Below are positions 5,763 to 8,352 of a DNA stretch of 32,000 bases, one piece after another. The translations under genes and the position numbers were made by a program. Within the stretch, counting starts at the first letter, position 1; the number at the start of each line of letters is the position of its first letter. The DNA is from Mycolicibacterium smegmatis (GTDB lineage: Bacteria > Actinomycetota > Actinomycetes > Mycobacteriales > Mycobacteriaceae): positions 4,620,001-4,652,000 of the forward strand of contig NZ_LN831039.1 of the NCBI RefSeq assembly GCF_001457595.1, given 5' to 3'. The notes under the pieces are model-generated. The model worked only from the letters and a program-made list of their open reading frames with translations, was not told the origin of the DNA and did not search any database.

Positions 5763-6686
5763 ATGACGTCCGCCCAGAACGAATCACAGGCCCTCGGCGA
5801 TCTCGCCGCACGGCAACTCGCGAACGCGACCAAGACAGTTCCCCAGCTGTCGACGATCACGCCACGATTCCTCTTGCACCTCCTCAGCTGGGTTCCTGTG
5901 GAGGCCGGCATCTACCGGGTGAACCGCGTGGTCAACCCCGACCGGGTGGCGATCCACTCCGAGGCGGGCGCGGGTACCGAGGAACCGCTGCCCGAGACCT
6001 ACGTCGACTACGAGACCCATCCGCGCGAGTACACGTTGCGGTCCATCTCGACGCTGCTCGACGTGCACACCCGGGTCTCGGACCTGTACTCCAGCCCGCA
6101 CGACCAGGTCACACAGCAGTTGCGGCTGACCATCGAGACCATCAAAGAGCGCCAGGAGTACGAACTGGTCAACAACCCCGAATACGGGTTGCTGGCGCAG
6201 GCGACGCCCGAGCAGACCATCCAGACCCTGGCCGGTGCTCCGACCCCCGACGATCTCGACGCGCTGATCACCAAGGTGTGGAAGACACCCGCGTTCTTCC
6301 TGACCCATCCGCTGGGCGTGGCCGCTTTCGGCCGGGAGTGCACCTACCGCGGCGTGCCGCCGCCAACCGTCAGCATGTACGGCGCCCAGTTCATCACGTG
6401 GCGCGGCATCCCGATCGTGCCGAGCGACAAGGTGCCCGTCGAGGACGGCAAGACCAAGTTCGTCCTCGTGCGCACCGGTGAGGAGCGCCAAGGCGTGGTC
6501 GGCCTGTTCCAGCCGGGACTGGTCGGTGAGCAGGCGCCGGGTCTGTCCGTGCGTTTCACCGGCATCAACCGTTCGGCGATCGCGTCGTACCTGGTGACGC
6601 TCTACACGTCGCTCGCGGTGCTCACCGACGACGCACTCGCCGTCCTCGACGGCGTCGCCGTGGACCAGTTCCATGAGTACCAGTGA
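5763..6686 (+). CDS. Family 2A encapsulin nanocompartment shell protein (MMP-I / 35-kDa antigen type)
   Basis: Track ORF 5718..6686 was trimmed to the ATG at 5763, which has a GGAGGAG Shine-Dalgarno 5 nt upstream. The 307-aa product has N-terminus MTSAQNESQALGDLAARQLANATKTVPQLSTITPRFLLHLLSWVPVEAGIYRVNRV, the hallmark N-arm of Family 2 encapsulins. From memory it is nearly identical to M. leprae major membrane protein I. It has no cNMP-binding insertion (hence 2A) and is immediately followed by a cysteine desulfurase with a disordered N-terminal domain. Confidence 0.9.
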   Translation: MTSAQNESQALGDLAARQLANATKTVPQLSTITPRFLLHLLSWVPVEAGIYRVNRVVNPDRVAIHSEAGAGTEEPLPETYVDYETHPREYTLRSISTLLDVHTRVSDLYSSPHDQVTQQLRLTIETIKERQEYELVNNPEYGLLAQATPEQTIQTLAGAPTPDDLDALITKVWKTPAFFLTHPLGVAAFGRECTYRGVPPPTVSMYGAQFITWRGIPIVPSDKVPVEDGKTKFVLVRTGEERQGVVGLFQPGLVGEQAPGLSVRFTGINRSAIASYLVTLYTSLAVLTDDALAVLDGVAVDQFHEYQ

Positions 6687-8352
6687 GTACCGCTCGTTGA
6701 ATGCCGAGAGCGATCTGCCGATAAGCGCCGACGAACTCTCGGCGCTGGCCACGCAGTTGTTCGCCGCCGGCATCCGGCCGGGTCCCGGCACACCGCCTCA
6801 GACCGCTCCGGTCGCACCACGCGGCAACGTGCCGGGTACCGCGCATCCGGTGACCCCGCCGACGGAATTCGTGGCCGTGCCGTCGGCCACGAGGTCGGTG
6901 CCGGCGCACACTTCACCGGTCCCGGAACCTGTTGCACCACAGACCGATCCCCTGGTCCCGCCGGGAGTGGCGGATCTGACGGCGTTCACGGTGCCCGGCG
7001 GTATCGTCCCGACACTTCCCGGTGTGCTGGCCGGCGCACGCACGGCCGTGCCTGCCGCCGAGTCGCCCGACTACTACTTCCTGCGCGACACACGCGCGCA
7101 TCAACCCGTGCCTCAGTTTCCCGACCGGCACGAGATCTTCGACGTCAACGCGATCCGCGCGGATTTCCCGATCCTGCGTGAGACCGTCAACGGCAAACCG
7201 CTCATCTGGTTCGACAACGCCGCCACCACACAGAAGCCACAGGCGGTGATCGACCGGCTGTCACACTTCTACGCACACGAGAACTCCAACATCCACCGCG
7301 CCGCACATGAACTCGCGGCCCGCGCCACCGATGCCTACGAGGATGCGCGTGAGGCGGTGCGCCGCTTCATCGGCGCGGCCAAGGCCGAGGAGATCATCTT
7401 CGTGCGCGGCACCACCGAGGCGATCAATCTCGTCGCCTACGCGTGGGGCGGCAAGCACCTGGGCCCGGGCGACGAGATCGTCATCACCCACCTGGAGCAC
7501 CACGCCAACATCGTTCCGTGGCAACTGCTCTCGCAGAAGACCGGTGCGGTGCTCAAGGTCGCACCGGTCGACGACGCCGGCAACCTGTTGCTCGGCGAGT
7601 TCGAGGATCTGCTGGGACCCCGCACCAAACTCGTTGCCGCAACGCAGGTGTCGAACGCGCTGGGCACGGTGACGCCGGTCGAGACGATCGTCGAACTCGG
7701 TCACCGCTACGGCGCACGCGTGCTGATCGACGGGGCGCAGTCCATCCCCCACATGCCGATCGACGTCGCCGGACTCGGCGCGGACTTCTTCGTGTTCTCG
7801 GGCCACAAGATCTACGGCCCCACCGGTATCGGCGTGTTGTACGGCCGCGAGGACGTCCTCGCCGAGACCCCGCCGTGGCAGGGCGGCGGCAACATGATCG
7901 CCGACGTGACACTTGAGCGCTCGTTGTACCAGGGTCCGCCCAGCAAGTTCGAGGCCGGCACGGGCAACATCGCCGACGCCGTGGGCCTCGGTGAGGCGAT
8001 CCGTTACGTCGAACGCGTCGGCATCGAACGCATCGCGGCCTACGAACATGCCCTGCTCGAATACGCCACGCCCCGGCTTGCGGCCGTACCCGGGGTGCGC
8101 ATCGTCGGCACCGCGCAGGAGAAGGCCAGCGTGCTGTCATTCGTGCTGGCCGGTCACGAACCCCTTGAGGTCGGCAAGGCCCTCAACGCCGAGGGGATCG
8201 CCGTGCGCGCGGGACACCACTGTGCGCAACCGATCCTGCGTCGCATGGGCCTCGAGGCCACCGTGCGGCCGTCGTTCGCGTTCTACAACACGTTCGACGA
8301 GATCGACGTGTTCATCGATGCGGTGCGCCGCATCGCCGAGGGTTCGGTTTAG
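6673..8352 (+). CDS. Group II (SufS/CsdA-like) cysteine desulfurase with ~155-aa proline-rich N-terminal cargo-loading domain (encapsulin cargo)
   Basis: 559 aa. The core begins near IFDVNAIRADFPIL. It carries HRAAHELA, the PLP-lysine motif FVFSGHKIYGPTGIG and the catalytic-Cys motif RAGHHCAQP. The N-terminal 1-154 is low-complexity and P/V/A/T-rich, with the short motif ELSALATQLFAAG. The start overlaps the shell gene by 14 nt. Confidence 0.92.
   Translation: MSTSEYRSLNAESDLPISADELSALATQLFAAGIRPGPGTPPQTAPVAPRGNVPGTAHPVTPPTEFVAVPSATRSVPAHTSPVPEPVAPQTDPLVPPGVADLTAFTVPGGIVPTLPGVLAGARTAVPAAESPDYYFLRDTRAHQPVPQFPDRHEIFDVNAIRADFPILRETVNGKPLIWFDNAATTQKPQAVIDRLSHFYAHENSNIHRAAHELAARATDAYEDAREAVRRFIGAAKAEEIIFVRGTTEAINLVAYAWGGKHLGPGDEIVITHLEHHANIVPWQLLSQKTGAVLKVAPVDDAGNLLLGEFEDLLGPRTKLVAATQVSNALGTVTPVETIVELGHRYGARVLIDGAQSIPHMPIDVAGLGADFFVFSGHKIYGPTGIGVLYGREDVLAETPPWQGGGNMIADVTLERSLYQGPPSKFEAGTGNIADAVGLGEAIRYVERVGIERIAAYEHALLEYATPRLAAVPGVRIVGTAQEKASVLSFVLAGHEPLEVGKALNAEGIAVRAGHHCAQPILRRMGLEATVRPSFAFYNTFDEIDVFIDAVRRIAEGSV

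Follow-up and report, generated by a model that had tools for sequence, protein, structure and literature searches.

A probable Mmp1/Enc-CD desulfurase encapsulin locus in Mycolicibacterium smegmatis and its conserved TQXA neighbour

Encapsulin systems homologous to the one described here are switched on by sulfur starvation in Synechococcus (PMC8049743) and Acinetobacter (PMC10836720), and the closest described system is the MSMEG_4537-4538 pair of Mycolicibacterium smegmatis mc2155, which was purified from that strain and solved as a T=1 icosahedron and as a decamer by Tang et al. (2024, PMC11659603). The same authors reported that residues 1-155 of the encapsulin cargo cysteine desulfurase (Enc-CD) are needed to load the native cargo and are sufficient for loading when fused to green fluorescent protein, and that the Mmp1 shell shields Enc-CD from oxidation and boosts its activity. 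Puncta of elemental sulfur (S0) and polysulfide in the lumen were detected by transmission electron microscopy with energy-dispersive X-ray spectroscopy and by X-ray photoelectron spectroscopy, sulfur deposition and puncta were lost in the C517A mutant, crystalline S0 cores were found in the particles after 10 days' culture, and the shell pores were described as too narrow for thiol reductants (PMC11659603). In this study, a stretch of 32,000 nucleotides of M. smegmatis (contig NZ_LN831039.1, positions 4,620,001 to 4,652,000; hereafter the window) was analysed, and its two plus-strand genes at 5763..6686 and 6673..8352 very probably represent the Mmp1/Enc-CD desulfurase encapsulin, here in an M. 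smegmatis strain that is not mc2155. The identification made in the original prediction is right but not new, because the system has been solved, assayed and automatically annotated in M. smegmatis, and the exact shell and cargo sequences were found in NCBI records of this species under the names of family 2A encapsulin shell and cargo. The accompanying remark that such systems have been little explored in mycobacteria no longer holds, since proteins 99.7% (shell) and 98% (cargo) identical to those of the window were characterised as MSMEG_4537-4538 in 2024 (PMC11659603).

The shell and cargo genes

The shell gene (5763..6686, plus strand) encodes a protein of 307 aa, the family 2A encapsulin shell protein Mmp1 or MMP-I, and is preceded by a Shine-Dalgarno sequence GGAGGA (5752..5757, plus strand) 5 nt before the ATG at 5763; a motif of the GGAGG or GGAAGG type was kept at this place in the alignment of related loci. 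The protein scored 500.3 bits against NCBIfam NF041162 encap_f2a (cut-off 380), covering profile positions 1-295 of 295, and 328 bits against Pfam PF19307 (SrpI-like; cut-off 22.8), which bears out the predicted Family 2 encapsulin with its N-arm; the N-arm string quoted in the original prediction corresponds to shell residues 33-56. The further claim, that the lack of a cyclic nucleotide monophosphate (cNMP)-binding insertion places the shell in Family 2A, also holds, because the profile search with PF00027 detected no cNMP-binding domain in the 307 residues and the Family 2B model aligned solely over its profile positions 210-449, i.e., its C-terminal half. The shell is identical at 306 of 307 positions to PDB 8WOL, 8WON and 9KSL ("Major membrane protein I"), and the single difference from the solved mc2155 protein is K230 here against T there. 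By sequence identity only, namely this 306/307 match to the 2.6 A cryo-electron microscopy T=1 structure 8WOL, the protein would have the HK97-type fold and assemble by itself into an icosahedron. A longer shell reading frame starting from the TTG at 5718 is unlikely, as the solved protein begins MTSAQ and this TTG lies inside a conserved TANNNT hexamer.

The cargo gene (6673..8352, plus strand) encodes Enc-CD of 559 aa, which matched NF041166 f2_encap_cargo1 over the full length with 857.5 bits (cut-off 800) and scored 557.3 bits against TIGR01979, the SufS subfamily model (cut-off 475.1). It is identical to mc2155 Enc-CD at 547 of 559 positions over the full length, and its residues 142-559 match PDB 8KG1; four of the 12 substitutions fall in the loading domain. 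The pyridoxal 5'-phosphate (PLP)-binding lysine in SGHK and the catalytic cysteine in HHCAQP, both pointed out originally, are present as Lys379 (codon 7807..7809, plus strand), read from the motif and conserved in the orthologues, and Cys517 (codon 8221..8223, plus strand), the sole cysteine of the cargo, which is invariant in 73 cargo orthologues. The predicted disordered N-terminal domain of about 155 residues (residues 1-155, 6673..7137, plus strand) was supported by composition, conservation and the mc2155 loading data (PMC11659603): it contains 18% Pro and 13.5% Ala and no Cys, Trp or Lys, and the mean column identity among the cargo orthologues was 56% here versus 91% for the catalytic domain. 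Conserved islands within this N-terminus lie at about residues 1-37 and 107-121, and the published motif constructs (residues 1-21, 35-55 and 107-121; PMC11659603) match them closely, not exactly. The loading domain is unusually short in the present cargo, which has 559 aa; of 72 other mycobacterial orthologues, all except two have lengths of 598-691 aa. This length variation among the mycobacterial orthologues is confined to the disordered N-terminal region.

The end of the shell gene and the start of the cargo gene share 14 nt (ATGAGTACCAGTGA; 6673..6686, plus strand), so that the cargo ATG at 6673 sits 14 nt before the end of the shell stop codon. Neighbour conservation was counted in 80 related mycobacterial genome loci (L001-L080; relatives at no more than 93% identity). 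An identical 14-nt ATG overlap occurs in 72 of 77 related loci, which argues that the predicted arrangement for translational coupling to a SufS-like desulfurase is conserved and not a chance overlap, and in each of the 75 related loci that have sufficient flanking sequence the shell gene is followed directly by the cargo gene. Two copies of the 7-nt sequence GAGTACC, spaced 10 nt apart, form a direct repeat at 6676-6692 that spans the shell stop and the cargo start and encodes EY in both frames; it is probably trivial. A putative -10 element of the shell operon, TATTGT (5716..5721, plus strand), corresponds to TATCGT or TAGGCT in the alignment of related loci. The scan for sigma-70 consensus promoters and for terminators over 5300-8600 found nothing, and the promoter calls are therefore based solely on conserved TANNNT hexamers. 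The search against Rfam gave no match in the whole window at gathering thresholds, nor in 5380-5800 at E up to 1.

Proposed sulfur storage and the competing explanations

On the model of the mc2155 system, 60 copies of the 307-aa HK97-fold shell protein would form a T=1 icosahedron, and a SufS-type PLP-dependent desulfurase dimer would be tethered inside via its disordered N-terminal 155 residues, both as shown for the near-identical mc2155 proteins. Cys517 would take sulfur from L-cysteine as a persulfide with release of alanine, which has also been shown for mc2155, and the cysteine may enter via the five-fold pores, as proposed by Tang et al. 2024 (PMC11659603). In the absence of an acceptor, polysulfide and elemental sulfur would build up and be laid down in the lumen, shielded from cytosolic reductants, as in mc2155. 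The two genes are presumably translated as a coupled pair from a promoter of their own, and the system would be made when sulfur is scarce.

The last step is suggested by the amino acid composition. A low content of sulfur amino acids is known to characterise proteins that are produced when cells starve for sulfur. Shell and cargo are nearly free of Cys and Met, which points to expression tuned to sulfur scarcity: their internal Cys plus Met content is 0.69% compared with 3.04% pooled over 13 other window genes (range 1.5% to 4.7%), with a binomial p of about 2e-6 for gene sets that were chosen after the data had been seen. The median Cys plus Met content of the orthologues was 0.0% for the shell, 0.36% for the cargo and 0.30% for the sulfate-binding protein SubI, compared with 2.84% for the trehalase, 3.44% for LepA and 2.86% for the methyltransferase encoded nearby. 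This depletion of Cys and Met argues, from composition, that the compartment may be made under sulfur shortage in mycobacteria too.

Several points weigh against storage under sulfur shortage as the role of the compartment. A cysteine-consuming enzyme produced during sulfur shortage is paradoxical. The literature search found no expression data under sulfur or cysteine limitation for this strain or mc2155, and by conserved-block alignment and short-ORF scan the shell operon has no polycysteine leader open reading frame (ORF) of its own. In mc2155 the sulfur puncta were obtained by overexpression, prolonged culture or feeding in vitro (PMC11659603), and storage as the physiological role is thus not proven. 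The proteins studied there also differ from the window variant by one shell and 12 cargo residues.

With the identity of the system unchanged, its main job may be other than storage: the shell would protect an oxidation-sensitive desulfurase and limit the hand-over of persulfide to a dedicated partner, the crystals being overflow. Tang et al. (PMC11659603) indeed found Enc-CD to be protected from oxidation and made more active by the shell, with no sulfur acceptor known, and acceptor gating was proposed by Andreas and Giessen for operons that carry a rhodanese. The most frequent Family 2A accessories, rhodanese and serine acetyltransferase, were not found in profile searches of the window proteins, and a conserved partner-like gene, TQXA, adjoins the operon instead. 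On the other hand, crystalline S0 cores occur in the particles of both M. smegmatis, after 10 days' culture, and A. baumannii, the pores described by Tang et al. are too narrow for thiol reductants, and none of the Family 2A systems is known to have an acceptor. We consider this explanation unlikely.

Very little speaks for the view that the desulfurase acts unencapsulated, as a housekeeping SufS in Fe-S cluster assembly, and that Mmp1 is the membrane antigen or adhesin of the older literature. The catalytic domain does score above the SufS subfamily cut-off, and MMP-I was first reported from membrane fractions and as an invasion factor. However, the window profile searches found no sufBCDU genes nearby, the 155-residue N-terminal domain is missing in SufS structures, whose matches begin at about residue 155, and no signal peptide or membrane domain was matched in the shell protein, which forms soluble 60-mers. 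This view was rejected on these grounds as very improbable. That the shell is a leftover HK97-type prophage capsid gene beside an unrelated desulfurase is effectively refuted, for although the HK97 fold is common to encapsulin shells and some sources still name members of this cluster "phage capsid-like protein", profile searches found no phage genes in the window, the pairing of shell and cargo with the 14-nt overlap is kept in more than 70 loci, the cargo passes a model specific for encapsulin cargo, and loading was demonstrated experimentally for proteins of 98-99.7% identity.

The TQXA gene and the polycysteine leaders

The divergent neighbour of the shell gene encodes a TQXA or thioester-like domain protein of 425 aa (4157..5434, minus strand), the orthologue of Ms4536, which scored 39.5 bits against PF08341 (thioester domain, TED; cut-off 22) and 61.6 bits against TIGR03934 (NCBIfam TQXA domain; cut-off 30.4) and is identical to the mc2155 protein at 422 of 425 positions. 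This gene is the divergent neighbour of the shell gene in all 78 mycobacterial genome loci with enough flank. A metagenome scan seeded with distant TQXA family members extended the comparison: among 60 informative loci of the mycobacterial type, 57 have the shell gene divergently upstream of TQXA, and the exceptions (L119, L131 and L157) are without a shell gene. A distant type (L084, L085, L099, L100 and L141) has the order polycysteine leader ORF, TQXA, shell and cargo on one strand in five of five informative loci, and the order in L100 was confirmed by Pfam. Identity to the window's proteins is about 40% for TQXA and 75-83% for the shell at these loci, and their leader ORF begins MQRKQ and ends CVRMRRCC before its stop codon. 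In one of them, L085, the leader ORF is preceded at a distance of about 200 bp by a gene for a hexapeptide-repeat transferase (80-739, plus strand), possibly a serine acetyltransferase, which is a common Family 2A accessory. Since the adjacency is kept in two different arrangements, a functional tie is argued for rather than inherited gene order alone. In the literature searches no paper connected encapsulins with thioester-domain or TQXA proteins, and the conserved link between TQXA and the encapsulin is possibly the one new point of this analysis.

The TQXA protein itself contains no cysteine, and no conserved Cys column was found among 78 orthologues. Ser66 in AYSLDF is nearly invariant, including in homologues of 32-46% identity and in long multi-domain relatives, and the glutamine motif HEAIAATQAAIW (residues 135-146 region) is invariant; both features were seen across 42 close and 21 distant homologues. 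The Pfam TED match begins at AYSLDF (residues 65-66 region), which we take to be the site where thioester domains carry their Cys. Because cysteine is absent, a Cys-Gln thioester is not possible, and judged from its sequence the protein should not be filed as a thioester-forming TED. Long multi-domain relatives of 875-1125 aa bear repeated copies of YS[LIVA]D. By eye, no hydrophobic core is apparent in the N-terminus, where Arg is frequent and conservation is poor. The family is small, 1.84 billion representatives having yielded 273 clusters at E up to 1e-3, and its profile found no solved structure by sequence. The AlphaFold model has a pLDDT of 77.5 and is weak over residues 1-100; its middle domain resembled CBM32 or galactose-binding-like sandwiches in Foldseek matches, which were weak.

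A block of about 100 nt between the TQXA and shell genes is better conserved than the TQXA coding start. It holds a leaderless polycysteine short ORF encoding MQHVASLRFGIARCLDVRCCC and a stop codon (5523..5588, minus strand), which ends in CCC before the stop, lies 88 nt before the TQXA start and matches the entry in Table S1 of Canestrari et al. at mc2155 coordinate 4625498 (minus strand), published as Ms4536A. The ORF is kept in 78 of 79 loci, 71 of which have a terminal Cys run of at least 2 and up to 11, and a TANNNT hexamer stands 6-7 nt before its start in 79 of 79; here the putative -10 element is TATGGT (5596..5601, minus strand), 7 nt upstream of the AUG. An inverted repeat, I1, would form a helix, of which the 5' arm UGUUGAUUUUCUGA (5515..5528, minus strand) comprises the last Cys codon, the stop and the following bases, and the 3' arm UCAGAAAGUCAACA (5438..5451, minus strand) contains the Shine-Dalgarno sequence of the TQXA gene. 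All 14 positions pair on the minus-strand RNA, including one G-U, and full pairing is found on that strand only. One pair covaries, with C-G in 28, U-A in 24, U-G in 3 and C-A in 0 of 55 loci, in step with the split between slow and fast growers, so that few evolutionary events may be reflected. For duplexes of the end of the leader ORF with the Shine-Dalgarno region, the generic energy was only weakly better than that of shuffles (median z -1.3), and the case for the helix is built on the specific 14-bp pairing and the covarying pair. In the MAFFT alignment the 3' arm was offset by one base between clades.

Canestrari et al. (2020, bioRxiv 10.1101/834739) listed Ms4536A as a candidate member of the mycobacterial Cys 'ribulon', in which ribosomes stalled at Cys codons are proposed to keep a helix from masking the downstream ribosome-binding site. 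They stated that corroborating evidence was missing, the Ms4536 protein being undetected in published proteomics, and the neighbouring encapsulin genes go unmentioned in their paper. Another leaderless short ORF, encoding MHSAGAMGSHVVVLPAAGFCVVADAHCCR and a stop codon (1616..1705, minus strand), lies 117 nt upstream of subI, ends in HCCR before the stop and is near-identical to the Table S1 entry for MSMEG_4533, published as Ms4533A; the Ms4533 and Ms4527 proteins rose under low cysteine (Canestrari et al., 10.1101/834739).

We tentatively suggest, as a possibility that is still rather doubtful, that the actinobacterial desulfurase encapsulin has the TQXA protein as a third functional component. 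At low levels of charged tRNA-Cys, ribosomes would stall on the polycysteine leader and free the TQXA ribosome-binding site, and the protein would then act on sulfur-loaded shells, for example by releasing or accepting stored sulfur. If so, it would supply the missing step of sulfur mobilisation, and the co-directional shell operon of the distant lineage could itself fall under cysteine control. The residual value of the locus lies in its sulfur-sparing composition, the conserved link of the TQXA gene to the operon and a published cysteine-sensing leader previously unconnected to the encapsulin, and it gives testable handles on sulfur release from desulfurase encapsulins and on mycobacterial regulation.

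The surrounding genes and comparison with known systems

The wider neighbourhood contains further genes related to sulfur. The sulfate-binding protein gene subI (449..1498, minus strand; TIGR00971, 169 bits, cut-off 155.5), the first gene of subI-cysTWA, lies 4.3 kb upstream of the operon, followed at the left edge of the window by an N-terminal cysT fragment, which was confirmed by search. A GH15 trehalase-like gene (1889-4153, plus strand) stands between subI and TQXA. Downstream of the cargo are a methyltransferase (8349-8894, minus strand), a quinone oxidoreductase (QOR; about 8948-9862, plus strand) and, 1.5 kb away, an SfnB-like flavin oxidoreductase (9871-11106, minus strand), which scored 262 bits, below the curated cut-off of 431; both distances are as originally noted. 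The SfnB-like gene belongs to a group with GNAT and amino-acid permease genes (9871-13588, minus strand), which is followed by an IS110-family transposase (13842-15050, plus strand; element of about 1.5 kb, 13599-15116) and by two NtaA/DmoA-type flavin monooxygenases (LLM1 and LLM2; 15181-17894, minus strand). The IS110 element separates the start of the permease gene from the end of the first LLM gene; the matching gap in a related locus (L031) is 52 bp, and the element probably splits an operon of LLM2, LLM1, permease, GNAT and the SfnB-like gene. The other window genes include those for a GAF protein, two PknH_C-domain proteins, lepA, an ATP-binding cassette importer, an aldo-keto reductase and RNase Z. 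The two PknH_C-domain proteins are in tandem (18490-20020, minus strand) and adjoin lepA. The ORFs at 29337-30167 and 29912-31312 (minus strand) overlap and match consecutive parts of the DUF222 profile, and look like one frameshift-split gene. The gene order in M. tuberculosis is presumably trehalase, lppR, lepA, and by this order the region 4157-18472, from TQXA to the GAF gene, looks like a variable insert. The claimed absence of the system from the M. tuberculosis complex, part of the original prediction, was not mentioned in the papers searched.

The original prediction had placed the operon in one sulfur-limitation island, and this stands in part. In its favour are two published cysteine-responsive leader ORFs in the window and the depletion of ten genes in internal Cys plus Met, which amounts to 0.0% for the permease (0 of 500 residues), 0.23% for LLM2, 0.24% for the SfnB-like protein, 0.29% for SubI, 0.31% for GNAT, 0.47% for TQXA, 0.65% for the shell, 0.66% for QOR, 0.72% for the cargo and 1.09% for LLM1. 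Against it, subI was found within 8 kb in only 28 of the 80 related loci, the count being 30 for the trehalase and 10 for the SfnB-like gene with its operon, and the sulfur-replete trehalase, methyltransferase and IS110 element are interspersed among the depleted genes.

Compared with known systems, the present shell shares with Family 2B (PDB 9BHU, 9BJE and 9BIX) the C-terminal HK97-type core (residues 62-300 here, E about 1e-80), whereas the 2B shells are of about 470 aa with an N-terminal cNMP-binding domain, absent here, and have mostly terpene-pathway cargo. Synechococcus elongatus SrpI/CyD (PDB 6X8M and 6X8T; Nichols et al. 2021, PMC8049743), the founding 2A member, is similar in its shell (E 1.9e-133) and in having an N-terminal loading domain; it differs in being cyanobacterial and plasmid-borne, and induction by sulfur starvation was shown there. 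The Acinetobacter baumannii system (PDB 8T6R; Benisch et al. 2024, PMC10836720) likewise has a 2A shell (E 7.7e-147 over residues 8-306), a desulfurase cargo with a disordered N-terminal loading domain and, in that species, elemental sulfur in the lumen. Its operon, however, consists of four genes including a rhodanese and a serine O-acetyltransferase, neither of which is in the window, and the conserved neighbour here is instead the TQXA gene with its polycysteine leader ORF. As in the attenuators of the Cys ribulon, the last Cys codon and the stop would pair with the downstream Shine-Dalgarno sequence, which is predicted here and was shown by mutagenesis for Ms5788A, whereas Ms4536A is a candidate only, the Ms4536 protein being undetected. 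The closest relative is mc2155 Mmp1/Enc-CD, of the same species and locus, with a 559-aa cargo of the same numbering (disordered residues 1-155 and C517), from which the present strain differs by one shell and 12 cargo substitutions and possibly by the IS110-family element about 5 kb downstream of the operon.

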